From positions 480,632-544,631 of the forward strand of contig CAZYLF010000001.1 in assembly GCA_964648765.1 (NCBI GenBank): a DNA stretch of 64,000 bases. The letters are read 5' to 3'. This DNA is from an uncultured Candidatus Saccharibacteria bacterium. Lineage in GTDB: Bacteria > Patescibacteriota > Minisyncoccia > Phycocordibacterales > JACOZG01. How positions within the stretch are numbered: the first letter of the stretch is position 1; each line of letters starts with the position of its first letter. The notes under the pieces are model-generated. The model saw only the letters and a program-made list of their open reading frames with translations, was not told the DNA's origin and made no database searches. Shown one piece after another: positions 15,146 through 50,462 of this stretch. The translations under genes and the position numbers were made by a program.

Positions 15146-16444
15146 ATGTCCAAAAATTTAATTAAAAAAACCCTAGTATCTTTACTTGCGCTTGAGGCGC
15201 GTTTGGTGGTGCGTAAATACAAACCAAAAATCATTGGTGTTACTGGTAGCGTGGGCAAAACAATGGTTAAGGATGCGATTTTTGAAGTACTTAAAGATCT
15301 ACCCGGGGGAGTGGGCAAGAGCCAAAAGAGTTTTAATAGCGAGTTTGGTGTGCCTCTTAGTATTTTGCGAGTTGATAATCCCTGGGGCAGTGCGCTCGGC
15401 TGGTTAAAAAATTTAATTGAGGGTTTGGCTTTAATTATTTTCCGCTATCCATATCCAAAATGTTTGGTGCTTGAAATTGGCGTAGACAGGCCAGGCGATA
15501 TGCTGCGCACTTTGCGGGGGATCAAACTCGACGTGGCGGTAATTACCCGACTGCCCGACCTCCCGGTGCATGTGGAATATTTTAAAAGTAAGGAGGCGGT
15601 AATTGCAGAAAAATTAAAAATTATAAAAACTTTAAAACCATCTGGATATGTGGTGGCTAATGGTGATGATGAAAAGATCTGTGCTGGGTTAAAAGAGACA
15701 AGTAAAAAAGTTTTGTATTATGGTTTTAATGAGGGTGCGGATTATCTGCTTAGTAACGAGCATTTAATTTATGATGAGAATACTTATTGGCCAATGGGCA
15801 TGACGTTTAAGATTAATTATAAAGGCAATAGTTTGCCAGTGAGGGCAAAAGTTTATAGCAAAGAGCATGTTTTAGGACTTGCTCCAGCTTTAGTGCTGGC
15901 GGGCGAAAGTAATATGGAAATGTTGAAGGCGATCGATGCGATAGATAATTACCATCTGCCACCTGGACGCTTGCAGCCGCACAAGGGTAATAAAGATTCA
16001 ATTATTTTTGATGACACTTATAACTCGTCACCAGCGGCTTTAGAATCGGCTTTAACTATGCTTAGTAATTTACGTGTTTTGGGTCGGAGGATTGTGGTGC
16101 TTGGCGACATGATGGAGCTTGGGACTTATACCATGGAGGCACATCAAAATGCAGGAATCATGGCGAGTAACGTTGCCAACATAATTATTGGTGTGGGGAT
16201 GAGGGCTAAATATATTGTGGATGAAGCAGTAAAGAAAAGATTTGGTAAACGTAAAACCGCGCACTTTATTGAGGCCCTGGAAGCGGGGAAATACTTAGAA
16301 CGACTTTTAAAACCAGGTGACGTGGTGCTGGTGAAAGGTTCGCAGTCAATGCGCATGGAGCGGATTGTGGAGGAGGTAATGGCAGAACCTGCGCGCGCGC
16401 CAGAGCTCCTTTGTCGGCAAGAAGCAGAGTGGAAGAAGAGATAA
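15146..16444 (+). CDS. murF: Mur ligase family protein, likely UDP-MurNAc-tripeptide--D-Ala-D-Ala ligase MurF
   Basis: GVTGSVGKT P-loop of Mur ligases; size and position after ftsI. Confidence 0.7.
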   Translation: MSKNLIKKTLVSLLALEARLVVRKYKPKIIGVTGSVGKTMVKDAIFEVLKDLPGGVGKSQKSFNSEFGVPLSILRVDNPWGSALGWLKNLIEGLALIIFRYPYPKCLVLEIGVDRPGDMLRTLRGIKLDVAVITRLPDLPVHVEYFKSKEAVIAEKLKIIKTLKPSGYVVANGDDEKICAGLKETSKKVLYYGFNEGADYLLSNEHLIYDENTYWPMGMTFKINYKGNSLPVRAKVYSKEHVLGLAPALVLAGESNMEMLKAIDAIDNYHLPPGRLQPHKGNKDSIIFDDTYNSSPAALESALTMLSNLRVLGRRIVVLGDMMELGTYTMEAHQNAGIMASNVANIIIGVGMRAKYIVDEAVKKRFGKRKTAHFIEALEAGKYLERLLKPGDVVLVKGSQSMRMERIVEEVMAEPARAPELLCRQEAEWKKR

Positions 16445-16450
16445 TTTGAA

Positions 16451-16479
16451 TAAAAAAGCCACGCGATGTTTTGCGTGGC
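16451..16479 (-). terminator. Repeated A-tract + CCACGCnnnnGCGTGG hairpin terminator, copy 1 (minus strand; possibly bidirectional with murF)
   Basis: AAAAAAGCCACGCGATGTTTTGCGTGGC. On the minus strand this is a hairpin followed by a T-run, directly 3' of ORF 16507..16950. Confidence 0.65.
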
Positions 16480-16506
16480 AGTGTAAACTTACCGAAGTAA
16501 GCCGAG

Positions 16507-16950: not shown

Positions 16951-17061
16951 CTTTTGCTCCTTTCAGCGAGTTAATGAGCTATAATTTATGTTCTGACTCG
17001 TGCCAGACTCCAGTTAGACGTTAGCATATTTAGCGGAAAAGTCAAGCATAGTGAATATAAT

Positions 17062-17088
17062 AAAAAAACCACGCAATGTTTTGCGTGG
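17062..17088 (-). terminator. Repeated hairpin terminator, copy 2
   Basis: AAAAAAACCACGCAATGTTTTGCGTGG, directly 3' of ORF 17107..17469. Confidence 0.65.
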
Positions 17089-17106
17089 CGGGGTATTTGA
17101 TGTTGC

Positions 17107-18291: not shown

Positions 18292-18382
18292 TTTATCTCC
18301 TTTCCTTATCTCAATTTCGAATCAAAAAAACAATCTAGTCAAAGAGTAACGTATATTGTGCAGATAGTCAAATCCTTAGTAT

Positions 18383-18409
18383 AAAAAAACCACGCGATGT
18401 TTTGCGTGG
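18383..18409 (-). terminator. Repeated hairpin terminator, copy 3
   Basis: AAAAAAACCACGCGATGTTTTGCGTGG, directly 3' of ORF 18442..18789. Confidence 0.65.
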
Positions 18410-18441
18410 TGAGTGAACTATTATTACGATTCGGAAGAATT

Positions 18442-26762: not shown

Positions 26763-27326
26763 ACAGGGGATTAAAGGGGGATAATTTTAAAGATCATAAC
26801 CCCCTTAATCCCCCTTACCTTAAGTGGGAAATAATATGGTACTTACGGTGTCGCATTTATCCTCCCCTTAGAGTAAGGGGAGTTAGAGGGGTTAGAAATT
26901 GTTACACTAATCTTGAGTTTGATCGTAAAAAAATAAATTTAAACAAAAAGAAAACCCGCTTGCCGATGACGACAAACGGATCTTCGTTTGTGCGCCTCGG
27001 AGGCGGGGTGTGTGGTCAGGCCTAGCTGAACAAGCTTAACCAGACTAGTGTTGCTAGGCGCTCCATCACCCTTTCAATTTGTTCTGTATCTCCAGATAGT
27101 ATGATCGCAAGCATGCATAGACAGGGTATGAATGCCAGCAAAAGAACAATCTCGAACAATAAAACAACAACGCATCGTGAAAATCTAACGAAAGTCATAA
27201 ATCCCCTGTGTAAGGATTTGAAAAATCTCGTAACCATGATCCTCTTCTCCTTCCTGTTACTATTCTCAAATGCGAACCACTTAGTCCGCTAACTATTTCG
27301 TAGGTTATCAGTTAATTTCTATTTTG
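26763..27326. other. Long (~560 bp) noncoding region with clustered G/C-run hairpins between dnaB (start) and cysS (end)
   Basis: GGGGATTAAAGGGGG...CCCCCTTAATCCCCC imperfect palindrome (26766-26814); CCCCTTAgagTAAGGGG perfect hairpin (26864-26880); GCGCCTCggaGGCG hairpin; GCCTAGC...GCTAGGC 7-bp stem (27029-27060). No long conserved ORF. Confidence 0.5.
27022..27237 (-). CDS. Hypothetical small membrane protein (71 aa) with strong SD
   Basis: AGGAAGGAGAAGAGG immediately upstream of ATG at 27237; one hydrophobic helix VVVLLFEIVLLLAFIPCLCMLAIIL. Confidence 0.35.
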   Translation of the reverse strand: MVTRFFKSLHRGFMTFVRFSRCVVVLLFEIVLLLAFIPCLCMLAIILSGDTEQIERVMERLATLVWLSLFS

Positions 27327-28613
27327 TCAACCTCGCGTAACCTTGGTCTCGGAGTCGGTGTCTTTGATGAGGTAGCCGAGGGATTCGATTTGGGCGCGCA
27401 GGGTGTCGGAAAGGGGCCAATTTTGGGCTTTACGGGCTTCTTCACGCTCTCTTACTAGCTTAGATACTTCAGCCGGAATTTCCTCAATTTCTGGCGTTTT
27501 TGAGAGGTTTAAACCAAAGACTTTATCGAATTCTAACCAAGTGGCTTTTTCATCGGCTGGATCAAGGTCGGTGGCTGAATCTATGATCGCTAAGGCTTTC
27601 GGCGTATTTAAATTATCTTCTAAACTTTCAATAAATTGCTGGCGCAAACTTTCATCAACTTTACCGCCGTCGGGCAAAGATGCCACGCGATTACGAATTT
27701 TATTTAAACGATTCTGCGCCGCTTGCACACTCTCATCTGTGTAATTTAAATCAGTTTGATAGTGCGCTTGAAGAACCAAATAACGGTAGGCGAGGGGATC
27801 AATATTTTTTTTCTTTAAATCGTTTAGTGTATAAAAATTATTGAGAGATTTACTCATCTTCTCATTATTAATATTTACGAAGTGTGAGTGAAGCCAATAT
27901 TTGGCGAGAGGTTTGCTGGTCGCGGCTAGAGCTTGCGCCAACTCATTTTCATGATGAGGGAAAATTAAATCAATCCCGCCGGTATGGATATCGATACTCT
28001 CACCAAGTAAATCTAAAATCATGGCCGCGCACTCGGTGTGCCAACCTGGTCGGCCTTTACTGAACGGTGCATCCCAAACTGTGTCACCATCCGTTTCTTT
28101 CCAAAATTTCCATAAAGCAAAATTTCCCTCGTCAGTTTTTTCTACTTTCCTAAATCTGCCATATTCGGAATCTTTAGCGAGTGAAAAATAAATTCCGTCT
28201 TCATCTTTTACTGCTTTACCGCTTTCAAGTAATCGTGAGATTAGGCTAATCATCTGCGCGATATAATCTGTGGCGCGCGGAGTAACGTCAGGCCTTAGCA
28301 TATTAATTTCCGACATTTCACTTAAAAATGCTTCTTCGTATTCTTTAGTAAAATCAAGTAATTTTTTGCCAGCTTTTTGACTGCCTAAAATGGTTTTATC
28401 ATCCACATCGGTAATGTTCATTACAGATTTAGTTTGGTAACCGAGATAATTTAAGGAGCGACGCAAAGTGTCGGAGAAGATAAATGATCGCCAATTGCCG
28501 ATATGTGGATAATCATAAACCGTTGGTCCGCATGTGTAGATCTTCACCACGTCAGATAGGGGAGTGAAGTCTTCAAGCTCGCGTGTCAGAGTGTTGTAAA
28601 GTTTTAACGACAT
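27327..28613 (-). CDS. cysS: Cysteinyl-tRNA synthetase
   Basis: CGPTVYDYPHIGN (HIGH), KMSKS, zinc-binding Cys; 428 aa. Confidence 0.9.
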   Translation of the reverse strand: MSLKLYNTLTRELEDFTPLSDVVKIYTCGPTVYDYPHIGNWRSFIFSDTLRRSLNYLGYQTKSVMNITDVDDKTILGSQKAGKKLLDFTKEYEEAFLSEMSEINMLRPDVTPRATDYIAQMISLISRLLESGKAVKDEDGIYFSLAKDSEYGRFRKVEKTDEGNFALWKFWKETDGDTVWDAPFSKGRPGWHTECAAMILDLLGESIDIHTGGIDLIFPHHENELAQALAATSKPLAKYWLHSHFVNINNEKMSKSLNNFYTLNDLKKKNIDPLAYRYLVLQAHYQTDLNYTDESVQAAQNRLNKIRNRVASLPDGGKVDESLRQQFIESLEDNLNTPKALAIIDSATDLDPADEKATWLEFDKVFGLNLSKTPEIEEIPAEVSKLVREREEARKAQNWPLSDTLRAQIESLGYLIKDTDSETKVTRG

Positions 28614-28689
28614 AATATTAATTATTATAACGTAATTTGCATAGACTTTCTATTTGACCAGTGAGTTGGAATTTGCGATAATTTAGATA

Positions 28690-40069: not shown

Positions 40070-40646
40070 TTTCAGGATTTTCCTTTTTAGCTAAAAAGTC
40101 TTCTAGTTTACCTTGGAGTGTGTCGAATTCAGGAAGTTCGCTAATTTGTTTGATGCCCAAGTGCGAGAGTAGTTCAAAAGTTGGTTGGTAGAGAAAGCTG
40201 CGTGAGTCATTCGGGTTAGTAATGCGTTCCACTAACCCACGGATTTGCAGATGTCGGAGGGTGAAGGATGAATTAACGCCCCTGATATAATCAATCTCCG
40301 CGCGCCCTACGGGCGCGCGGTAAAGCACAATCGTCAGTGTCTCCAAACTTGCTTTCGATAGTTCACTAGATAATTCTTCCTTAGTTAAACTTTCAAAAAT
40401 GTTTGCTAAAACGGGCGCAGTGCCGAGTGTGACCTCGGCATCTTTACGGACCAAACAAAGCCCGCGATTGATAAGCGCCGCCTCAAGCTCCTTCAGTCCA
40501 TTCTCAATTTCATCTTTAGTTGCACTTAAACTTTTGGCTAAAAAGTCCACCGTCACCGGTTCGGCTTTCCAAAATAAAACGGCTTCAATTTTCCCCGTCA
40601 AGCTCATTTCCATGGCTTGAATTATAACCCTTTTCTCATTACTCAC
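40047..40646 (-). CDS. scpB: Segregation and condensation protein B
   Basis: Tandem winged-helix ScpB pattern IEAVLFW...LVR...DYIRGVNSSFTLRHLQIRGLV. Confidence 0.8.
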   Translation of the reverse strand: MSNEKRVIIQAMEMSLTGKIEAVLFWKAEPVTVDFLAKSLSATKDEIENGLKELEAALINRGLCLVRKDAEVTLGTAPVLANIFESLTKEELSSELSKASLETLTIVLYRAPVGRAEIDYIRGVNSSFTLRHLQIRGLVERITNPNDSRSFLYQPTFELLSHLGIKQISELPEFDTLQGKLEDFLAKKENPENENANNI

Positions 40647-40650
40647 AGTC

Positions 40651-40679
40651 TTGACAAATAATAACTAATTTACTACGAT
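40651..40679 (+). promoter_or_regulatory. Promoter of the TTGACAAAT family (TTGACA-17nt-TACGAT)
   Basis: TCTTGACAAATAA at 40649-40661; drives small ORF 40764..40964. Confidence 0.4.
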
Positions 40680-40763
40680 TCTGAATAGAGATGATAGGAC
40701 AATCTGCGTTGATTGCTTCACAAAAACTATTGTTTGAAATCTGTTTGATATGGGGAGATCAAA

Positions 40764-40964
40764 ATGAAATGGACCCTGAGAAATGTAATCATTTTCTTTC
40801 CAATAATTAGTTTAAGTTTTGCTATCGGTGCTTTTTTAGGTCTTTTTGTCTGGGAGCATATTCCTAATGCGGTATCTCCTGTTGCGTATGTGACCGTTTT
40901 CGGTCTCGTGGGAGCAATCATTGGAACATCAGTTTCCCTATGGTGGATTCTCTCACGTAGGTGA
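40764..40964 (+). CDS. Small 2-TM membrane protein (66 aa) inserted between scpA and scpB on the opposite strand
   Basis: GGGGAGA RBS before ATG; two hydrophobic helices. Confidence 0.45.
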   Translation: MKWTLRNVIIFFPIISLSFAIGAFLGLFVWEHIPNAVSPVAYVTVFGLVGAIIGTSVSLWWILSRR

Positions 40965-41086
40965 GCTGGTGAAAATCCCGACCACCAACAAACATCCCTC
41001 GTTGTTAGCTAGCGATAGCAAAACAGTGAGGGTGTTTTTTATTCTTAAACTTTTCTCTATAAGATCCAAAGTCGATTTAAAATACT

Positions 41087-41818
41087 TTAGTATCTCGGCA
41101 CAGAGCTTGAGTTCAAATTCTCGATACTTATGTCGGAGAAGTGGGCATCTTGGCGCACATCCACAATCCCCTGCTTAACCAACTCAAGCATGCCTAGAAA
41201 TGAGACGATGATATTTACCCTATCCTTTTTATCTGCTACAAATTGCCCAAAATTCATTTTAAAAGCTGACTGCACGCGCGTGGCCAGATCCTGCATCACC
41301 TCCTCTAAACTTAAAATTTTCTTCACAATCACCTGCGGAATAATTTCTGCGATGGGCAAACTGGCAATTAAACCTTTTAACAAATTAGTTAAATTCTCCA
41401 AACTAATTAATTTAGTGGGAGTGAACACTGGCGTGCGGTCACTGGCGCCTTGGCGGAAATTAATTTTGGCGGGACCATATAGACCTTTCACATTTACACT
41501 TAAATTTTTAATTTTTTGGTAAATTCTTAAACGATTCTCTAGATCCTCAATACTCGCCTTCTCCTCCTCCGTTACCTGGATGTTAGGTAAAAGGGAAATT
41601 GATTTGATCAGCATCAAGGTTGCTGCGACCATAATAAAGTTGGCCATCTCACCCATCGGCTTTTGTTCACCAAGACCATTTAAATAGCTCACATAACTAT
41701 CCGCCACGAGCGCCAGTGACACCTCGCTAATATGTAATTTCCGCTTTTCAATCAAATCCAAAAGCAAAGGCAACGGCCCCTCAAACTCCCCTACTTTAGT
41801 CTTAAATTCCACGTCCAT
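41087..41818 (-). CDS. scpA: Segregation and condensation protein A
   Basis: FEGPLPLLLDLIEKRKLHISEVSLALVADSYVSYL is a typical ScpA N-terminus. Confidence 0.85.
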   Translation of the reverse strand: MDVEFKTKVGEFEGPLPLLLDLIEKRKLHISEVSLALVADSYVSYLNGLGEQKPMGEMANFIMVAATLMLIKSISLLPNIQVTEEEKASIEDLENRLRIYQKIKNLSVNVKGLYGPAKINFRQGASDRTPVFTPTKLISLENLTNLLKGLIASLPIAEIIPQVIVKKILSLEEVMQDLATRVQSAFKMNFGQFVADKKDRVNIIVSFLGMLELVKQGIVDVRQDAHFSDISIENLNSSSVPRY

Positions 41819-41874
41819 AATTATTACCCTAAATTATAACTTTATTTAATCTTTTCGCCGATACTTGACAAATG

Positions 41875-41903
41875 TTAACCAACATGCTAAGCTCCAAGCG
41901 GAT
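41875..41903 (+). promoter_or_regulatory. Promoter of the TTGACAAAT family (TTGACA-17nt-TAAGCT)
   Basis: ACTTGACAAATGTTAA at 41873-41888. Confidence 0.45.
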
Positions 41904-41979
41904 TGTCAAACGTGCCTATAGATAGGATCGAAGTCTTATTTTAAAAGCACATATAGTTAAAATTAACAGGAGATTCGTC

Positions 41980-42261
41980 GTGAAATGGCTTGTTGCTTGT
42001 TCGATAGCGCTGATTGCAGTGACGTTTTTTTATCTGGGATCGTGGGTGAGCAGCTCAAATTCAACTTCTCAAACTATTGTCAAAGTTGCCAACAACATGG
42101 ATGCTGAGATCCCCTACCTGAAACAGAGAACGGTCGTTAAGATTGAGGGGATTGGACTGAGAGAGCTAGTCTGCGAGGGAAAGGAGCTCGGTAATGAGTG
42201 CCGGGTTTTGTTTTCACCAGTCCCGTTGGGGCCTCGAGCTCAGACTTTTCCCTGGGGTTAA
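41980..42261 (+). CDS. Small secreted/membrane-anchored Cys-containing protein (93 aa)
   Basis: AGGAGA RBS, GTG start, N-terminal signal-like helix, two Cys (CEGKELGNEC). Confidence 0.45.
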   Translation: MKWLVACSIALIAVTFFYLGSWVSSSNSTSQTIVKVANNMDAEIPYLKQRTVVKIEGIGLRELVCEGKELGNECRVLFSPVPLGPRAQTFPWG

Positions 42262-42354
42262 ATCGTTCACCGCCTGCTCTCGTGCCAAAGTGAATCAGCT
42301 GGAGTGTTCAGAAGATGATTGAACATTGGCAGCGTTACAGAAAGGAAACTGATC

Positions 42355-42540
42355 ATGAAAAACTCACCAGCTGTGTTTTTCAATTCTGCTTTAGTTCTTT
42401 CTGGGCTCTGTGCTGGAATGAACTGTCGGGCAGACATTGTAGCAAAGTTCTTAACAGTATTTCTTGGAATCTGGGCAGTAGGGTCGTTTACAATGGCAGC
42501 TGCCCATCTGATCGCAAATGCGATTAAAGAAAAGAAGTAA
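42355..42540 (+). CDS. Small 2-TM membrane protein (61 aa); paralog of 43423..43620
   Basis: AGGAAA RBS; pattern A(V/I)FF...AKF..VF...WA.GS...I..AI..KK is shared with the downstream paralog. Confidence 0.45.
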   Translation: MKNSPAVFFNSALVLSGLCAGMNCRADIVAKFLTVFLGIWAVGSFTMAAAHLIANAIKEKK

Positions 42541-42566
42541 AGAGGCCACTGACGAAGCTTTATGCA

Positions 42567-42636
42567 AAGGCGCTCGGATGAATAATCCAAGCGCCTTTTT
42601 TATTTCCCGATTTTTATGCCTAACTCTTTAAGTTGC
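42567..42636. repeat. Duplicated segment: terminator hairpin + relic of the aspS 3' end (copy of 43648..43712)
   Basis: About 85% identity to 43648-43712. The minus strand would still encode ...QLKELGIKIGK* (the aspS C-terminus) but has no upstream ORF. Confidence 0.7.
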
Positions 42637-42728
42637 CCACATAACTACTCGTTACCGAAGCCAGTAACACATCAAAAATATGCAATTATTAGCTTAAATT
42701 ATACCCTTTTCAGCCATTTCCACAGCTA

Positions 42729-42757
42729 TTGACAAATAACAAACTATTTGCTATCAT
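42729..42757 (+). promoter_or_regulatory. Promoter of the TTGACAAAT family (TTGACA-17nt-TATCAT)
   Basis: TATTGACAAATAACAA at 42727-42742. Confidence 0.5.
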
Positions 42758-42825
42758 TGTGTTTGGAAATTTACTGGTTGATACCAGTTTGGACATACCA
42801 TCTGAAAGCCGAAAGGAAACCTTGC

Positions 42826-43014
42826 ATGTATTTTATTTTTGGAATAGTCTGCGCTATCTGGTCCGGAAATTCTTACCTTAATCACAACTACCCGCTTTGC
42901 ATTATAATGGCGTTGATTTCCATCGGGCTGTTCATCTCTAGTGGCGCAATGAAAATTTCAGACGCTATTGAGTACGCAGCATCAGAAAAGTCGGAAGAGG
43001 AATCTGAAGAATAG
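42826..43014 (+). CDS. Small 2-TM membrane protein (62 aa) with acidic C-terminus
   Basis: AGGAAA RBS; ATG at 42826; terminator follows. Confidence 0.45.
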   Translation: MYFIFGIVCAIWSGNSYLNHNYPLCIIMALISIGLFISSGAMKISDAIEYAASEKSEEESEE

Positions 43015-43030
43015 GTTACTCAAAAAAACA

Positions 43031-43066
43031 GGCGCCGGTCGTTATACACGATTCGGCGCCTTTCAT
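43031..43066 (+). terminator. Rho-independent terminator
   Basis: GGCGCCG...CGGCGCC stem followed by TTTCAT. Confidence 0.55.
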
Positions 43067-43074
43067 ATTGAACG

Positions 43075-43102
43075 TTGACAAACTACGTGTAAATGATATT
43101 AA
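43075..43102 (+). promoter_or_regulatory. Promoter of the TTGACAAA family (TTGACA-16nt-TATTAA)
   Basis: CGTTGACAAACTACG at 43073-43087. Confidence 0.4.
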
Positions 43103-43138
43103 GTAATGAGTCAGTTATTTTGAAAGGACAGGTGAGCC

Positions 43139-43390
43139 ATGACTTCAGATGCATTTGGTTTGGGTCTGCAAATTACGGGAGGAATATTGCTCTCAGTTGG
43201 GGCAGCGGGTATCCCTCTTTGTATCCTTTTCGCAATCTACCGTAAGCCGAAGTTTGGTGTATCGTTTGAGCCATTAGCCATGGTCATACTGTGTGTGGTT
43301 CTTTCATTCATCGGTGCCGTTGTGCTTCAAACTAGGGCATCAATGATGAAAAAAATTGCAGCTCAAGCTGAAAACAAACAAGTTGAATAG
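43139..43390 (+). CDS. Small 2-TM membrane protein (83 aa)
   Basis: AGGACAGGTGAG RBS; two hydrophobic helices. Confidence 0.45.
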   Translation: MTSDAFGLGLQITGGILLSVGAAGIPLCILFAIYRKPKFGVSFEPLAMVILCVVLSFIGAVVLQTRASMMKKIAAQAENKQVE

Positions 43391-43422
43391 TTGAGCGGAA
43401 ATTTCTTGAGAAGGGAGAAAAA

Positions 43423-43620
43423 ATGAGAGGCAAAGACCATGCAATTTTTTTCTGGATTTTGGGTTTCTTGCTTTCTATCGGTAGTGCTACTGTACATTGC
43501 GCCTGGGATGATAGTAGTGCCGCAAAATTTTTTTCAGTATTCTGGGCACTATGGGCACTTGGATCCTATTGCAAAGCTGTCTCAATTGAGATTGTTGGTG
43601 CGATTCAATCAAAAAAATGA
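43423..43620 (+). CDS. Small 2-TM membrane protein (65 aa); paralog of 42355..42540
   Basis: GGGAGAAAAAATG RBS; shared sequence pattern with 42355..42540. Confidence 0.45.
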   Translation: MRGKDHAIFFWILGFLLSIGSATVHCAWDDSSAAKFFSVFWALWALGSYCKAVSIEIVGAIQSKK

Positions 43621-43644
43621 GTTTTAGCACAAAACAAGCATGCA

Positions 43645-43677
43645 GACGCGCTCGGATGAATAATCCGGGCGCTTTTT
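43645..43677. terminator. Bidirectional terminator shared by the small gene (+) and aspS (-)
   Basis: GCGCTCGG...CCGGGCGC stem, T-run on + and A-run upstream. Confidence 0.6.
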
Positions 43678-45075
43678 TTATTTCCCAATTTTAATCCCTA
43701 ATTCTTTAAGTTGTTTAGCTTCAATTTCTGACGGGGCGTTCATCATTAAGTCGCGACCTTCGCCGGTTTTGGGGAAGGCGATCACTTCACGGATGTTAGG
43801 CTCACCTGCTAGTAAGGTCACGAGACGGTCGAGTCCCCAAGCAATACCACCGTGAGGTGGCGCGCCGGAACCAAGCGCCTTCAACATATGGCCGAAGTTC
43901 GCCTCAATCCGCTCATCGCTGTAACCTAAAATTTTGAAAACTTGTTTAAGCATTTCTGGTTTATGATTGCGGATACTCCCGCCACCAATTTCAAAACCAT
44001 TTAATGCCACGTCGTATTGAGTGGTTAAGATATCACCAATTCCCTCGCCTTTGCTTAACGCTTCTTCATGTTCTGGCGTAGCGCGTGAGAATGGATTGTG
44101 AGTAAAAGTCCACGAACCATCATCCGCTTTTTCAAAAAATGGGAAATCGATAACCCAACAAAAGGCAAGTAAATTCGGATCCTCTTTATTTTCCCTCATA
44201 TCTGGACGGTCAGTGCCATATTTACTCATCGCTTCTTTGTAAGTAATCCGAGGGAAGGGTACGGTTTGGATTTTCTTCTCCGGCATTAATTCCGCCACAA
44301 TTTTAATTAAAAGTTCTTCATTAAGTGCCATCACATCTTCACGATTCACAAAGCTCATCTCGAGGTCGAGTTGAGTAAACTCCGGTTGACGGTCACCACG
44401 CGTATCTTCATCGCGGAAGCAGCGCGCGATTTGGAAGTAACGTTCAAGCCCCGCCACCATTAGGAGTTGCTTGTATTGCTGTGGAGATTGAGGTAAAGCA
44501 TAAAATTTGCCGGTGTAGAGACGCGAAGGCACCACGTAATCCCGCGCGCCTTCTGGCGTACTCTTAGTAAGCACTGGTGTTTCCACTTCAGTAAAGTTTT
44601 TAGAAGAAAGGTGATCTCGAATGAGCTTTGTGATTTTGTGTCTCAAGCGTAAATTTTTCTGCATTCGCTCTCGGCGTAAATCTAGATAACGACTCTCAAG
44701 TCGTAGCTCCTCGCCCACTTCACGACCATCAGTGCCAATGTCGAACACAGGCGTTGTCGCCTCGTTTAGCACTTCAATTGCTAAAATTTCAAGCTCAATA
44801 TCGCCGTTAACTTTATCTTTTTGAATATTTTTCTCGGGGCGTTTGTTGACCTTACCCTGCACGCTCACCACCCATTCGGTGCGCAACTTCTCACCCACTG
44901 CGTGAGCGTCTTTGGCATTAGGAAGAATAACCCCCTGCACAGTGCCGGAAGTATCGCGGAAGTCGAAGAAGATCATCTTGCCCTGATCGCGCCTCACGGC
45001 CACCCAGCCGGAGATCTTAACCTCCTCACCCACGTGTTTATTTAACTCACCAATCATTGTTCGTTCCATGTTCAA
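43678..45075 (-). CDS. aspS: Aspartyl-tRNA synthetase (short bacterial form, no GAD insertion)
   Basis: OB-fold N-terminus; class II motifs FRDED, GGGSIR, GLDRL; 465 aa. Confidence 0.9.
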   Translation of the reverse strand: MNMERTMIGELNKHVGEEVKISGWVAVRRDQGKMIFFDFRDTSGTVQGVILPNAKDAHAVGEKLRTEWVVSVQGKVNKRPEKNIQKDKVNGDIELEILAIEVLNEATTPVFDIGTDGREVGEELRLESRYLDLRRERMQKNLRLRHKITKLIRDHLSSKNFTEVETPVLTKSTPEGARDYVVPSRLYTGKFYALPQSPQQYKQLLMVAGLERYFQIARCFRDEDTRGDRQPEFTQLDLEMSFVNREDVMALNEELLIKIVAELMPEKKIQTVPFPRITYKEAMSKYGTDRPDMRENKEDPNLLAFCWVIDFPFFEKADDGSWTFTHNPFSRATPEHEEALSKGEGIGDILTTQYDVALNGFEIGGGSIRNHKPEMLKQVFKILGYSDERIEANFGHMLKALGSGAPPHGGIAWGLDRLVTLLAGEPNIREVIAFPKTGEGRDLMMNAPSEIEAKQLKELGIKIGK

Positions 45076-45088
45076 TATATTATAGAAT

Positions 45089-46087
45089 TTAATTCACCCC
45101 CACAAGTTCGCGCACTTTTTTCATCTTTGTATCAGCTACTTGCTTTGCCTTCTCTCCTCCCAACTCTAAAATCTTCCTAATCTTATCTGTGTCCTTTGCA
45201 ATCTCCTCCCGTCGTGCGCGAAGTGGCGCAAGAAATGCATTTAAATTTTTAAACAAAATCTCCTTAGATTCTTTATAACCAATCCCGCCTTCCACGTACC
45301 TTTTCTTCAATTCCGGCAAATCATTTTGGCTAACTAATTTATGTAAAGCATACACATTGCACTCTTCAGGATTCTTCGGCTCCTCGGGCGTTTTAGAATC
45401 AGTTTTAATACTCATTACTAATTGTTTTAGCTCCGTCTCGTTTACGAAAAGTGGAATGGTATTTTTATAACTCTTACTCATCTTCTGACCGTCGAGTCCG
45501 GGCACCACGGCTACGTCTGGCATGATGAGCGGTTCAGGTAATTTAAAGCCTTCGCCATACACGCGATTAAACTTCTCCGCTGTGTCGCGAGCGATCTCAA
45601 TGTGTTGCTTCTGATCCGCGCCCACTGGCACCACGTCAGCATCGTAGAGTAAAATGTCAGCCGACATGAGCAATGGGTAATCAAAGAGCCCCACGCTCAC
45701 TTCATGATTTTTAGCTTCCGCATCCTTAAACGCATGCGCGCGCATTAAGTAAGGCATGGTGGTGAGACAATTGAAGATCCATGTGAGTTCCGTATGTGCC
45801 GGCACGGATGATTGTTTAAAAAGTGTGACTTTTTCTGGATCCAAACCAATTGCGAGATAATCAATCGCGAGATCAAGAGTGTCTTGGCGTAATTCTGCCG
45901 CATTTTGCTCTTTTGTAATTGAGTGGTAGTCAGCCAGCATAAAAAAGCAATTATAATTATCTTGCAGGTCCACAAATTGCTTCATCGCGCCGAAATAATT
46001 GCCCACATGTGGCCGACCAGTGGGCTTTACGCCGGAAAGGAGAATCTTTTTATCAGAATTCATGATTTTAATCATAACAAACTTCAA
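45089..46087 (-). CDS. trpS: Tryptophanyl-tRNA synthetase
   Basis: SGVKPTGRPHVGNY (HIGH-type) and KMSKS motifs. Confidence 0.9.
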   Translation of the reverse strand: MKFVMIKIMNSDKKILLSGVKPTGRPHVGNYFGAMKQFVDLQDNYNCFFMLADYHSITKEQNAAELRQDTLDLAIDYLAIGLDPEKVTLFKQSSVPAHTELTWIFNCLTTMPYLMRAHAFKDAEAKNHEVSVGLFDYPLLMSADILLYDADVVPVGADQKQHIEIARDTAEKFNRVYGEGFKLPEPLIMPDVAVVPGLDGQKMSKSYKNTIPLFVNETELKQLVMSIKTDSKTPEEPKNPEECNVYALHKLVSQNDLPELKKRYVEGGIGYKESKEILFKNLNAFLAPLRARREEIAKDTDKIRKILELGGEKAKQVADTKMKKVRELVGVN

Positions 46088-46099
46088 GCCTCGCCAATA

Positions 46100-46128
46100 T
46101 TGACAAATAAACAGTAGTATGCTAACCT
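46100..46128 (+). promoter_or_regulatory. Promoter of the TTGACAAAT family (TTGACA-17nt-TAACCT)
   Basis: TATTGACAAATAAACA at 46098-46113. Confidence 0.5.
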
Positions 46129-46223
46129 ATATGCAGTTGGTTAGAGAAGAGTGGAATATGGCTCTGATGAGCCGTTCTCTAGCCTAGTCGCCTCAATGAT
46201 TGAGGCTTTGACAGGAGAATATC

Positions 46224-46988
46224 ATGCAGTTCATCAAGAGGTTTGGTGTTTGTATCGCGGTACTTTCCGCGGTCGTGCTTTCCGGGGGGTTGCAGAAGGC
46301 GACTGCAAATCCGGTGTACATGAGCTCGGGGTACGGAACTGACGGTTCCGGCAGTGGCCACATGGACGGTCAGACGATTGTTCCGTACCGAGTTCACAAC
46401 TCGGTGCAGGTTACCCCGTTTTATAACGGTGACAATCAGCTCATCGGCGCCAACTGGTATGCGAGTTTGACTATGGAAGGTTCACTGAACAGCGATGGCA
46501 CGATTACGCAGGAAATGCGTGATCTCGCGGCCAATCAGATGAACATCCATTCTCACTATCGCATCAACCAAATCAATTTCGTCGAGGGTGATGAATATGG
46601 ATACTATCTCATTGATGGTATTGCAGAAGTCATTCTTGACGGGAGCGTCGGCGCCAACATCTACACATACACAGACGGTGGTGGCAAGGGTGTAATGGGC
46701 CTCGGAGAAACTTTCGAGTCTTACGTTGGGTACATGAATGCTAACGTTAACGTCAACGGTCCTGGTATGTCCATCGATAACATTTCGATGCACTTCCGCG
46801 AGTACCAAGACGGGAACGTGCCGAAGCCCGACTGGTGGGGTGGTGATTATGCCGCTGATATTGACATCAGCGGGTATGTGGATTTCGCCGGTGGTGGTCT
46901 TGGGATCAGCCGTGTCGTTGTTCCCGAGCCGGCTTCATTAGCGCTCCTTTTGATCGGCGCTGTGGCTGGACTACGCCGCAAGAAGTAA
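46224..46988 (+). CDS. Secreted PEP-CTERM-anchored protein (high-GC gene)
   Basis: N-terminal signal peptide; Gly/Asn-rich beta-type body; C-terminal VPEPASLALLLIGAVAGLRRKK equals the PEP motif plus TM plus basic tail. GC is clearly above the genome background. Confidence 0.7.
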   Translation: MQFIKRFGVCIAVLSAVVLSGGLQKATANPVYMSSGYGTDGSGSGHMDGQTIVPYRVHNSVQVTPFYNGDNQLIGANWYASLTMEGSLNSDGTITQEMRDLAANQMNIHSHYRINQINFVEGDEYGYYLIDGIAEVILDGSVGANIYTYTDGGGKGVMGLGETFESYVGYMNANVNVNGPGMSIDNISMHFREYQDGNVPKPDWWGGDYAADIDISGYVDFAGGGLGISRVVVPEPASLALLLIGAVAGLRRKK

Positions 46989-47032
46989 TGGAGGGGGGAA
47001 GCACCTAGCTTAATGGGGGTTAGCTAGGCAAG

Positions 47033-47076
47033 GCGGCCGGTGTGAGGATTTATCCTTGCACTGGCCGTTTTTTTAT
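47033..47076 (+). terminator. Rho-independent terminator
   Basis: CGGCCGGTG...CACTGGCCG stem followed by TTTTTTT. Confidence 0.65.
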
Positions 47077-47127
47077 GGTAGAGTACTTCCAGTTGGTTTT
47101 TCCCAGTTCTTTTGAAAGGAGTCTACA

Positions 47128-47397
47128 GTGAAGAAACCATCGGCCTTTGGGATGTCTCCCACAATGATTTTGTTTTTTATAATTTTTGTTATCATAGCTG
47201 GTGTGATCACAGGCTGTGATCGGGAGTTGGTAACCTACTACTATCCTATCCCCTCGTATTATGATGATACGGCGTATGAGGTTGTGGACATTGTAGATAT
47301 TCATTATGTGCCGTATGATCCATTTTTCTACTCTGAGATCCATTACTACGATGATTGCCCTTACGACCTATTCTATTGCAAGCAAATAAAAAAATGA
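47128..47397 (+). CDS. Small Tyr/Asp-rich putative lipoprotein (89 aa)
   Basis: AAGGAG RBS, GTG start, signal peptide ending ...VITGC (lipobox-like), Y/D-rich mature part with Cys. Confidence 0.4.
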   Translation: MKKPSAFGMSPTMILFFIIFVIIAGVITGCDRELVTYYYPIPSYYDDTAYEVVDIVDIHYVPYDPFFYSEIHYYDDCPYDLFYCKQIKK

Positions 47398-47449
47398 GTC
47401 GTGATGTGGTTGACCAAGCTCCCCAAACTTTAAGTGCGGGGAGCTTTTC

Positions 47450-50053
47450 TTATGCTGATTTTTTGCGCAAAATTTTCTTTAAATACTTAGCAGTGTGTGA
47501 ACCTGGTGTATACGCCACTTCTTCTGGTGTGCCAATCGCCACAATTTGCCCACCACCAAGGCCACCTTCCGGTCCCATATCTATAACATAATCTGAGCAT
47601 TTTATAATTTCTAAATTATGCTCGATCACCACCACACTATTCCCCTTCTCCACTAATTTATTCATAATCTCAATCAACTTTCGCACATCTTCATAATGTA
47701 AACCTACTGTCGGTTCATCAAGTAAATAAATTGTGCGTTCGGTGAACGGCCTATAAAGTTCTGATGAAATCTTCACTCTCTGCGCCTCACCGCCCGATAG
47801 CGTGGTAGCCGATTGCCCAAGCTGGAGATATCCTAAACCCACGGCCAATAAAGTTTCTAACCTATCGGCGATCGCTGGAATATCATGGAAGAATTCCAAA
47901 GCTTCCTCTACGGTTAAGTGAAGCACATCATCAATATTCTTTTTCTGATATCTCACTTCAAGTGTTTCTTTATCAAATCTTTTTCCTCGACACACGTCAC
48001 ATTCCACATACACAGTGGGGAGAAAGTTCATTTCTACTGCAATTGTGCCGTTACCTTGGCAAGCTTCACATCTGCCGCCTTTAACGTTAAACGAGAAGCG
48101 ATTGGCCTTCCAACCCTTTAGTCTCGCGCCTTCCGTGGCAGCGAAAAGGTCTCGGATGTGCGTAAAGGCGCCAGTGTATGTGGCTGGGTTGGAGCGTGGT
48201 GTACGACCAATTGGTGATTGATCAATTAATACGGCGCGATGCACATATTCTGTTCCTGAGAATTCTTTACAGTTATAAACGGCGCTTGAGCGATAACGGC
48301 GATCAAATCTGGCTTGCAAATTCTTGTGTAAAATTTCGTAAACTAAAGATGATTTGCCGGAACCAGACACGCCGGTGATGGACACTAAACGCCCGAGTGG
48401 AATATCAACCTTCAAGTTTTTAATATTAAAGATATTGCCACCGCGGATTTTAATTAAGCCCTTTTCCGACGCGCGGCGTTTGTCTGGAATGGGGATAGAA
48501 ACATCACCGCGCAGGTAATCCACTGTTACGGAATTAAAAGTATTCTTCTTGGCCGTTAGCAACTTCTCTATGTCGTCGGCCACCACGATTTTGCCACCAT
48601 GCACGCCAGCGCCCGGACCGATGTCTACCAGATAATCTGATGCGTAAATTGTGTCTTCATCATGCTCCACCACAATGATTGTGTTGCCGATGTCGCGGAG
48701 ATCTTGAAGCGTTTTAATTAAACGATCGTTATCGCGGGAGTGAAGACCGATGGTAGGTTCATCAAGTACGTAAAGTGCGCCTACTAAGCGCGAGCCGAGC
48801 TGCGAGGCTAAACGAATACGCTGGGCTTCACCGCCCGAGAGCGTGTGAGCGCGACGGTCGAGCGTGATGTAATCCAAGCCGACGTCGAGTAAGAACTTTA
48901 AACGCGATTCAATCTCCTTAAGAATTACTTTAGAAATTTCTTTCTCCTTTTCCGTTAGTTTTAAATTATTAAAAAAATTATTAGCCTTCTCAATTGAGAG
49001 CGCGGCTACTTCCACAATGTTTAATCCCCCGCTCTCTTTACTCCCGTTCAAGCGCACCTCAAGCGCTTCTGGTCGTAAACGATTGCCATGGCAAGTGTCA
49101 CAAGAATCAGAACCGAAAAAGTGTTTGGTCCCCAAACCATGACAAGCCGGACAAGCACCGTAAGGTGAATTAAAGGAGAAAAGACGTGGTTCAATTTCAG
49201 GATATGAGAAGCCGTCAAATGGGCAAGCAAATTTAGCAGAGAAAATGTTACTTTCCTCGCCTACTATAATCTTCACCAAGCCATCACTCTCGTTTAAGGC
49301 GCGTTCCACCCCCTCACTTAAACGTTCATTGGAGGAGTCCACGGTGGCTTGCCCAACCTCCTTACCGATTTTACTCCCTGTGCTTTTGCCACCAGTGAAA
49401 TCAATAAGCGGAATCTCATCCACAATCACATCAATCTCGTGCTTTTTATTTTTATCGAGCAAGATGCGCTCGCGCAGAAGTTTACGCGCGCCATCAATAA
49501 TTACCTCGCGATAACCTTTATCTAAGAGATCATAAAGTAGTTGATAATATTCGCCTTTTCTTCCCCGAATTAATGGAGAAGTAATTAAAAGTGAATCGCC
49601 CTTAGCGCCTTTTAAATTCTCCTTCACCAAACCCACAATCTCAGCATTTGAGAGTTTAACGATCGGGCGGCTACAGGTTAAACAATATGGTCGGCCCACG
49701 CGCGCGTAGAGCACACGGAGGTAATCATAAATTTCAGTAATCGTGGCTACTGTGGAACGTGGATTATTAGAGCGCGACTTCTGGTCTATTGAAATGGCTG
49801 GCGAGAGTCCGCGGATCTCATCCACGTCGGGCTTTTGCATCTGCTTTAAAAATTGTCGGGCGTAAGAAGAGAGGGATTCCACATAACGTCGCTGACCTTC
49901 AGCGAAAATAGTGTCGAAGGCCAGGGATGATTTACCTGAACCAGAGAGACCAGTGAACACCACCATTTTACCACGTGGAATTTCGAGATTTACGTTTTTG
50001 AGATTATGAGTTCTCGCACCCTTAATCACAATTTTATCTTCCTCGCTTTTCAT
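47450..50053 (-). CDS. uvrA: Excinuclease ABC subunit A
   Basis: Two ABC ATPase modules ([14 protein letters not shown]; [11 protein letters not shown]) and C4 zinc fingers. Confidence 0.9.
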
Positions 50054-50086
50054 AAATTAGCGTTGATTATAGCAGGAATATGGTAT

Positions 50087-50110
50087 CTTGACAAATGTAA
50101 AGGTATATAA
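50087..50110 (+). promoter_or_regulatory. TTGACAAAT motif copy upstream of TATAAT (spacing atypical, 12 nt)
   Basis: TCTTGACAAATGTAAAGGTATATAAT. The motif is conserved, but the -35/-10 spacing does not fit canonical sigma70. Confidence 0.35.
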
Positions 50111-50173
50111 TAGGGTAATTATCAGCTGGGTTGAGTCCCCCGGGTATTGGTGTCACTTACTGAAAGGCGAGAA

Positions 50174-50395
50174 ATGAGGAGTGTTAAGGTAATTCACACG
50201 CAGGAATCTGAAAATTATGCGAAACTTCATCAGTCCAAAATTGACGAAGAAGTCGCGAAGATGGCGAAATGTGGAGCAATTGTGATAGGTGCTAGCACGG
50301 CCTTTGGCACATACAGTCGTGAATATTTAACAATAGCCACGACCATCGTATTTGAGGAGTCAAAAAAGCTGGACAGTGTATTTGAGGAGTGCTAG
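50174..50395 (+). CDS. Hypothetical small protein (73 aa)
   Basis: GAAAGGCGAGAA RBS, own terminator; the track ORF extends to 50147. Confidence 0.35.
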   Translation: MRSVKVIHTQESENYAKLHQSKIDEEVAKMAKCGAIVIGASTAFGTYSREYLTIATTIVFEESKKLDSVFEEC

Positions 50396-50426
50396 CAAGA
50401 ACTGACTTTGGTAAATTTTCTCAAGT

Positions 50427-50462
50427 GTCCTGTTGGGCTCATAGCTCACAGGACATTTTTTA
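50427..50462 (+). terminator. Rho-independent terminator
   Basis: GTCCTGT...ACAGGAC stem followed by TTTTTT. Confidence 0.65.

Follow-up and report, generated by a model that had tools for sequence, protein, structure and literature searches.

What brings six near-identical promoter-like elements together, each upstream of a small gene, in one short segment of a bacterial chromosome? The segment lies in a 64,000-nucleotide stretch of contig CAZYLF010000001.1 (assembly GCA_964648765.1, positions 480,632 to 544,631 of the forward strand; hereafter the window), and the element is a -35 hexamer, TTGACA, with an extension of a few bases. An earlier, sequence-only reading had attributed the extended motif to a dedicated regulator or an alternative sigma factor, and the gene pairs behind it to bacteriocin/immunity or toxin/antitoxin modules. 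Our analysis points to a different answer. The elements are probably ordinary primary-sigma promoters of accessory gene cassettes, and their likeness would come mainly from a copied back-to-back promoter module together with an A/T preference of the clade.

The sequence that we could read comprises the window and its flanks, 79.2 kb of a genome that measures 553 kb or more, and the similarities between promoter regions rest on blastn, nhmmer and explicit alignments. The host belongs to the Paceibacteria (Patescibacteria, or candidate phyla radiation, CPR), is a bacterium of the groundwater type, has a tiny genome and is probably an episymbiont. The window matches a section of an 84-kb Logan contig from sample SRR14271332 without a difference, and its proteins recur on an NCBI contig of 553 kb. 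A search with its TrpS matched only metagenome-assembled genomes of the Paceibacteria type. The closest match among species representatives was 74% identical, and scanning metagenomes with TrpS brought up nothing closer than 71%. Two relatives were located through ScpA homologues and show full synteny with the window. The first, rel1 (locus L086), is 95% identical in ScpA, 95% in UvrA and 89% in TrpS; the second, rel2 (locus L092), is 81% identical in ScpA. A more distant relative, L001, carries a homologue of one of the small genes, gene G. We refer to the six motif promoters as P1-P6 and to the nine small + strand genes as A-I, which form seven units (A, B-C, D, E-F, G, H and I; Table 1).

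The motif cluster and its promoters

The + strand carries six copies of the motif TTGACAAA, at 40651, 41865, 42729, 43075, 46100 and 50088. Five of these sites read TTGACAAAT, and the one at 43075 reads TTGACAAAC. All six are intergenic, share one strand and fall within a 9.45-kb span, and the other ~70 kb of the contig holds no further site. The cluster is real and the placement of the motif is clearly non-random, with a clustering probability that we estimate at ~6 x (9446/158494)^5, roughly 5e-6. The number of copies is mildly high: TTGACAAAY is found 6 times against 2.56 expected, and 6 or more copies appeared in 5 of 100 shuffles. Related Paceibacteria loci contain TTGACAAAT 11 times in 1.26 Mb. 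The remaining TTGACA promoters in the window (18880, 33134 and 58210) lack the extension.

The sequence-only reading had written the motif with flanking pyrimidines, as (C/T)TTGACAAA(T/C). The six TTGACAAA sites are confirmed, but the bases in front of them are, in site order, C, C, A, G, A and C, so that the prefix fits three of six. The prefixed 10-mer is not above chance, with 3 copies found against 1.27 expected and 3 or more in 13 of 100 shuffles. Most of the positions first listed hold, except that the copy placed at 41875 is actually at 41865 and the copy given as 50087 is at 50088. The distance of 60-125 bp to a small + strand gene is borne out by the measured values of 113, 115, 97, 64, 124 and 86 nt, the last becoming 59 nt with a TTG start (range 59-124 nt).

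The TTGACA hexamer is exact at all six sites. In P1-P5, a spacer of 17 nt (16 nt in P4) separates it from a -10 box of the form TAnnnT, which is TG-extended in P2, P3 and P5. The unit then continues with a leader of 30-90 nt, a GGAG-type Shine-Dalgarno (SD) site, a small open reading frame (ORF) and an intrinsic terminator, composed of a G+C-rich hairpin and a T-run. This architecture is predicted to be that of an ordinary primary-sigma (sigma-70-type) promoter, and the motifs very probably serve as the promoters of the small + strand genes. Gene H has a weaker promoter of its own. We notice that the -10/start region of H resembles that of P5 (46118-46142 versus 47074-47098, 72%).

At five of the six sites, P4 being the exception, a minus-strand -10 box locates 16-26 nt from the motif. 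These boxes stand 7-14 nt from the ATG of a housekeeping gene (scpB 7, scpA 14, trpS 7, uvrA 12), and the divergent partner of P3 lies in a decayed scpA copy. The 23-nt spacing between the trpS -10 box and the plus-strand -35 is repeated in L001. A TATAAT-like box 7-14 nt before the ATG, with no SD site, is seen at scpB, scpA, trpS, uvrA and cysS (minus strand, 40613-40627, 41818-41838, 46063-46076, 50053-50071 and 28613-28630). This spacing suggests that the housekeeping mRNAs are leaderless or nearly so, in contrast to the accessory genes with their long leaders and strong SD sites.

P6 departs from the common spacing. On the + strand TATAAT follows after 12 nt, and at 17 nt there is just TAGGGT, so the rule of 17 +/- 1 nt fails. 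The mis-spaced copy had been taken as a hint of a regulator. Its 12-nt spacer at 50088 is genuine, but the odd spacing arises because the complement of the motif (TTGTCA) works as the predicted uvrA -35 on the other strand, 17 nt from its -10 box. With 11 of 12 positions matched, the uvrA promoter is the best match in the region, and its -10 box has counterparts at the orthologous position in rel1 and rel2 (TGtTAAACT and TGaTAAACT).

Two further features touch individual promoters. An inverted TTGTCAA (minus-strand TTGACA at 41909) stands opposite the TTGACAA of P2, 31 nt downstream of it, and the interval 41865-41909 contains ATGTTaaccAACAT within the spacer. The leader of G (46135-46215, +) is predicted to form two hairpins, one of them long (-33.7 kcal/mol, z = -3.7). 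Both relatives preserve the long one, rel2 with compensatory changes from AGAGA/UCUCU to GAAAA/UUUUC. This leader has no Rfam match and could be a stabilising or regulatory element. A 5' leader structure common to the units was considered and rejected, the leader of G being the one that is structured.

Promoter paralogues and cassettes in close relatives

When the region was compared with itself, four matches were significant. P3 resembles P1 with 74% identity over 81 nt (E 1.5e-6; 40615-40692 and 42692-42770) and P2 with 71% over 72 nt (E 1e-3). The likeness among P1-P3 reaches ~45 nt upstream, into the promoter of the neighbouring gene. These alignments argue that P1-P3 are paralogues over ~80 nt and share common descent. 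When a profile of P1-P3 was run against the 79 kb, P5 was the best non-self match (E 0.064), from the minus-strand -10 through the plus-strand -10, and a probable origin of P5 from the same copied module is indicated. The profile matched P6 over 23 nt only and did not match P4.

The duplication has left scars. The segment 43522-43713 matches 42442-42635 with 70.5% identity over 200 nt (E 1e-21), taking in the terminator and the end of aspS. Within it, the terminator and a scrap of aspS (42562-42635 and 43640-43713) are 88% identical. The scrap holds the last 12 codons of aspS with the stop and abuts a 61-nt scrap of the scpA 5' end, beyond which comes a copy of the scpA-upstream promoter; the two scraps together span 42600-42687. 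This order of aspS scrap, scpA scrap and promoter copy points to a tandem duplication of the entire scpA-to-aspS interval, and direct repeats meet at a junction that links both ends of the unit. The duplicated genes C and F keep 38% identity (z = 12) with a ratio of nonsynonymous to synonymous substitution of ~0.3, and their synonymous sites are saturated.

The comparison with relatives separates the history of the promoters from that of the cargo. The genes uvrB, uvrA, trpS, aspS, scpA and scpB keep the same order in the window, rel1 and rel2. Of 80 related genomes, 58 preserve the collinear order trpS-aspS-scpA-scpB, and the spaces between these genes range from overlaps to 4.7 kb. When the slots of these 58 distant relatives were searched for opposite-strand small transmembrane (TM) genes, they proved variable and held mostly unrelated genes on the same strand. 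The small genes had been described as wedged between minus-strand housekeeping genes, and they do appear as accessory insertions in this collinear array.

In rel1, A, B-F and I are absent, and the scpA-scpB gap (55 nt) and uvrB-uvrA gap (161 nt) are both free of genes. Its aspS-scpA gap of 481 nt contains a promoter, CCACAGCTATTGACAAAAT, that is 88.9% identical to the upstream half of P3 and just 73% identical to P2. Since 88.9% is close to the 86.7% identity of scpA DNA, the upstream half of P3 is taken as the ortholog of the scpA-upstream promoter of rel1. That promoter precedes an unrelated cargo, a CxxC..CxxC ORF (L086 9520-9960) with an in-frame TAG. The G ortholog of rel1 is truncated to 179 aa (L086 6369-6908; 82% identical over 130 aa), and the cassettes appear to be decaying in this lineage.

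In rel2, B-F and I are missing, and an A ortholog and G- and H-like genes are present. The ORF at the A position (L092 10923-11123) encodes a product of 66 aa that starts with MKWT and shares 26% identity with A (z = 7.7); the P1 ortholog in front of it reads TTGACAACT..TGCTAACAT. There is zero gap at aspS-scpA and at uvrB-uvrA. Between trpS and uvrA lie genes for a PEP-CTERM protein (24% identity to G), a 78-aa lipoprotein rich in Tyr (34% to H) and three more secreted Cys-containing proteins. The entire I cassette is missing from both relatives. P5 is kept in both as TTGACAAATAAAC..TGCYAACCT, and in L001 the G homologue is divergent from trpS behind TTGACAAGT-17-TAGTAT. When 80 GTDB loci were searched by tblastn with the small proteins, this G homologue was all that came up, and a metagenome scan for the -10/leader signature of P5 gave 0 matches.

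The orthologs of A, H and G are 24-34% identical, against 81-95% for the flanking housekeeping proteins. These comparisons indicate that the promoter modules are old paralogues predating the split of these genomes, and that cargo genes are gained, lost and replaced, and diverge at a much higher rate than their neighbours.

Two small repeats occupy intergenic slots of this clade. A 38-nt palindromic element, TTGTAGCAAAAT..ACGATCGT..ATTTTGCTACAA, resembling repetitive extragenic palindromes or miniature inverted-repeat transposable elements, occurs in the uvrB-uvrA gap of rel1 (L086 3514-3551) and the scpA-scpB slot of rel2 (L092 10752-10789); the 79 kb read here contain no copy. The other repeat, GGTAAGGGG(G)ATTAAGGGG(G), is G-rich and lies upstream of dnaB (window 26770-26890) and in the scpA-scpB spacer of rel1 (L086 10735-10760).

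Table 1. Promoters, genes and gene fragments of the cassette region, in window coordinates.
Feature	Position	Strand	Description
P1	40651..40679	+	TTGACAAAT -35, 17 nt, TACGAT; upstream of A
scpB -10 TATAAT	40621..40626	-	7 nt before ATG 40613; 24 nt from P1 -35
gene A	40764..40964	+	66 aa, two hydrophobic segments, SD GGGGAG, terminator ~40993-41042
P2	41865..41893	+	TTGACAAAT, 17 nt, TGcTAAGCT; upstream of B and C
scpA -10 TATAAT	41833..41838	-	14 nt before ATG 41818; 26 nt from P2 -35
gene B	41980..42261	+	93 aa, N-terminal hydrophobic segment, Cys65/Cys74, GC 0.49
gene C	42355..42540	+	61 aa, 2-TM, F paralogue
terminator hairpin after C	42569..42601	+	copy of hairpin after F
aspS 3'-end pseudo-fragment (QLKELGIKIGK*)	42600..42635	-	32/36 identical to real aspS end
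scpA pseudo-fragment (nt 80-140)	42627..42687	-	72%, E 8e-5
P3	42729..42757	+	TTGACAAAT, 17 nt, TGcTATCAT; upstream of D
gene D	42826..43014	+	62 aa, hydrophobic; missed by public gene caller; terminator ~43031-43066
P4	43075..43102	+	TTGACAAAC, 16 nt, TATTAA; upstream of E and F; without divergent partner
gene E	43139..43390	+	83 aa, 2-TM
gene F	43423..43620	+	65 aa, C paralogue; terminator 43648-43679 adjoins aspS stop
P5	46100..46128	+	TTGACAAATAAAC..TGcTAACCT, 17 nt; upstream of G; kept in rel1, rel2
trpS -10 TATGAT	46071..46076	-	7 nt before ATG 46063; 23 nt from P5 -35
gene G	46224..46988	+	254 aa, signal peptide and PEP-CTERM, GC 0.52; terminator 47030-47078
H promoter TTGCAC-17-TGgTAGAGT	47056-47084	+	-35 within G terminator stem
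gene H	47128..47397	+	89 aa, Tyr/Asp-rich lipoprotein, lipobox ITGC
uvrA promoter TTGTCA-17-TGcTATAAT	50066..50094	-	12 nt before ATG 50053
P6	50088..50111	+	TTGACAAAT, 12 nt to TATAAT (50106-50111); upstream of I
gene I	50174..50395	+	73 aa, soluble; terminator ~50426-50462

Small proteins and other cassettes

The nine products are probably envelope or surface proteins, except that I shows no hydrophobic segment. Hydropathy gives two segments for A, C and E, one or two for D and F, and an N-terminal anchor or signal for B, G and H. An AlphaFold model of I reached a pLDDT of 52 and was set aside. The product types first proposed are right for the 2-TM proteins A, C and E, the Cys-pair protein B, the PEP-CTERM protein G and the 73-aa protein I, and less certain for D and F, which have one or two segments. 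The genes had also been called GC-elevated. That is true of B and G, and the others (0.39-0.44) are at the level of the genome. Eight of the nine ORFs were found independently by the public gene caller, D being the one missed. Under housekeeping codon usage, the annotated frame was the best of six for eight of nine, all but C.

A single family of small proteins is contradicted by pairwise tests, in which C and F alone are related (z = 12), C and D are marginal (z = 3) and the rest are unrelated. Scans of the nine products against Pfam, NCBIfam, PHROGs and PADLOC found PEP-CTERM on G only (PF07589, 23.9 bits with a cut-off of 20.7, E 4e-5; TIGR02595, 23.5 bits with a cut-off of 16), and Rfam gave no RNA family in the region. 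No exosortase is present among the called genes of the 79 kb. Among 5.8 billion proteins, a word-indexed search with B gave no homologue, and the C/F profile found nothing else. A search of 1.84 billion representatives with G gave four other proteins only, one being the truncated 82% ortholog and the others ~33% identical; its mature domain is 24-33% identical to three or four proteins. Eight of the nine proteins are in the collection, D being absent, and seven of them are singletons at 90% identity, while the cluster of H has one further member.

Outside the range of the six sites, we notice an eighth cassette (27022-27335, -), which is flanked by cysS and dnaB and shares their strand. It has TTGACAAAA-17-TAACCT at 27330(-), the SD site AGGAAGGAG, an ORF at 27022-27237 for a hydrophobic protein of 71 aa (MVTRFFKSLH...) and a terminator. 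Meanwhile, a terminator hairpin, CCACGCAAAACATCGCGTGG with a T-run, occurs in three copies 81-97% identical at 16433-16489, 17044-17095 and 18376-18419. The copies flank three orphan genes of 147, 120 and 226 aa that are unrelated and have a TTGACT-type promoter and SD site each. In this 16-18 kb region it is the terminator that recurs as a regulatory element with different cargo genes.

Competing explanations and known systems

The question of why the sites look alike beyond the hexamer depends on what follows TTGACA elsewhere. As background we used 144 promoter-like sites (TTGACA, 16-18 nt, TAnnnT) from 2.05 Mb in 162 related loci. The next three bases are A in 45%, A in 46% and T in 43% or A in 38%. 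The triplet is AAA in 15% and AAT in 6.9% of these sites, and AAT in 2.5% of other TTGACA sites. This preference indicates that part of the extension is a general trait of promoters in the class. In three orthologous promoters the extension is ACT (P1 of rel2), AGT (P5 of L001) or AAA (the scpA-upstream promoter of rel1, TTGACAAAA).

Taken together, the data are best explained by seven independent accessory units that would have been inserted in reverse into the uvrB, uvrA, trpS, aspS, scpA, scpB array. Six of the seven would start at the motif, a near-consensus primary-sigma promoter, and H would use its own. The copied module may consist of the minus-strand TATAAT that starts a housekeeping gene and the plus-strand TTGACAA.. 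16-26 nt away. It could have spread by segmental or tandem duplication, giving the paralogous P1-P3 and probably P5, and the mild tendency of the clade to follow the -35 hexamer with A-A-(A/T) would strengthen the resemblance. We speculate that an insertion into the operon survives only if the promoter for the downstream essential gene is restored, and that this is why cassettes carry or sit on back-to-back promoters.

If the motif were nothing but the generic strong-promoter consensus of the clade (TTGACAAW...), the cluster would be a local concentration of independently transcribed genes that resemble each other by convergence or chance. The window count, just mildly above shuffles, the A-A-(A/T) preference in Paceibacteria promoter-like sites, the eighth cassette with TTGACAAAA at 27330(-) and the isolation of P4 and P6 would all fit. 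We regard this as unlikely all the same. The homology of P1-P3 is significant and comes with gene-fragment scars, AAT at five of six sites against a background of 6.9% has a probability of ~9e-6 by our binomial estimate, and the TTGACA promoters elsewhere in the window are without the extension. The same excess, an identical 9-mer at five of six sites, speaks for the opposite proposal, in which the extended motif is the site of a dedicated factor or alternative sigma that co-regulates a small-protein regulon. So do the invariance of TTGACAAATAAAC at P5 in three genomes and the quasi-palindrome CTTGACAAATGT(T/A)AA shared by P2 and P6. The P6 core GACAAATGTA even fits KACANNTGTA, the core of CopY/BlaI-family operators (PMC7253601). 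Given TTGACAAAT, however, a CopY-like match needs just 2-3 more bases at one of five sites, and we judge it probably a chance match. The spacing and -10 boxes match the primary sigma factor, three orthologous promoters carry ACT, AGT or AAA instead, and the P1-P3 likeness spans the promoter of the neighbour, which argues for descent rather than a binding site. The downstream genes are heterogeneous as well, and precomputed Pfam matches of the genes called in the 79 kb include no sigma factor or BlaI/CopY-type regulator. The regulator once proposed thus seems improbable to us. We give equally little credit to the broader idea that the back-to-back module, and the terminator in the 16-18 kb region, form a fixed socket in ultra-small CPR genomes at which recombination swaps or duplicates unrelated small envelope-protein genes, or else that TTGACAAAT marks a small regulon of a novel factor; a socket, if true, would allow rapid surface diversification without disturbing the essential operon.

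Bacteriocin/immunity or type I-like hydrophobic toxin/antitoxin pairs would explain strong promoters, duplication and turnover at once. The 2-TM protein C lies behind B, which has a Cys pair and is secreted or anchored, and E and F form a 2-TM pair; tandem duplication, fast divergence and presence or absence in close relatives would suit such modules too. On the other hand, neither B nor the C/F profile has homologues, the family and defence-system scans found no such system, and there is no double-glycine leader and no dedicated exporter nearby, the neighbours being scpA/B, aspS and trpS. Minus-strand promoter-like sites within the cassettes, as expected for antisense RNAs, are at chance (19 against 20 +/- 4 expected, weak 9/12 matches only), and only the leader of G is structured. 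Small envelope proteins are an equally good reading in a tiny, probably episymbiont genome, and we consider the toxin or bacteriocin assignment very unlikely.

Several points weigh against the reading of copied primary-sigma promoters that we prefer. P4 and P6 share little with P1-P3 past a 9-15-mer, and no wider homology is seen. The first seven spacer bases of P5, AATAAAC, are identical in three genomes in which the upstream flank and mid-spacer have diverged, and this hints at constraint beyond the hexamer. If P1-P3 are counted as one lineage, three AAT and one AAC among four lineages still have a probability of ~1e-3 by our estimate. The synonymous sites of C and F are saturated, yet the terminator and the aspS scrap are 88% identical, so a simple duplication would need a later gene conversion or a second event. 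Finally, the inspection covered 79 kb out of 553 kb or more, and the promoter roles are predictions from sequence.

The locus gives a small-scale view of accessory gene gain and loss in a streamlined Patescibacteria genome. Orphan cassettes for membrane or secreted proteins seem to have been inserted in reverse, tandemly duplicated, replaced or deleted at a housekeeping identity of 81-95%, each being paired with a promoter that would keep the downstream essential gene expressed. If the pattern is general, such slots would be a place to seek the host- or phage-interaction surface repertoire of CPR bacteria, and they would be useful for studying the origin of orphan small proteins.

Among known systems, type I toxin-antitoxin and class II bacteriocin pairs share with this locus the short hydrophobic peptides, tandem copies, strong promoters and patchy distribution. 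In contrast, no antisense RNA gene was recognised in the cassettes, they have no leader peptide, transporter or sequence or profile similarity to such pairs, and most of the products have two hydrophobic segments in 61-83 aa. G shares with PEP-CTERM/exosortase substrates the signal peptide, C-terminal VPEP motif, TM helix and basic tail; here the host is a Patescibacterium with no exosortase seen in the 79 kb, and the mature domain is nearly an orphan.

The promoters agree with primary-sigma extended -10 promoters (TGnTATAAT) in TTGACA, the 16-17 nt spacing and TAnnnT, with TGn in P2, P3, P5 and uvrA, and in their placement 30-90 nt upstream of an SD-led gene. They differ in that AAT is common after the hexamer, three are paralogues of ~80 nt and one copy serves the opposite strand. 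As in divergent promoter pairs, an opposite-strand -10 lies 16-26 nt from the motif, and at P6 both promoters use one quasi-palindromic -35 (TTGACAA / TTGTCAA). Here, however, the partner TATAAT is 7-14 nt from the ATG, and four of five partners are without a recognisable -35 at 17 nt. The slots uvrB/uvrA, uvrA/trpS, aspS/scpA and scpA/scpB, with different or no genes in each genome and fast-diverging membrane or surface cargo, are reminiscent of flexible genomic islets. Unlike islets, the cassettes measure 0.4-1.9 kb and lack an integrase, tRNA or attC-like site, and the promoter is kept while its cargo changes.

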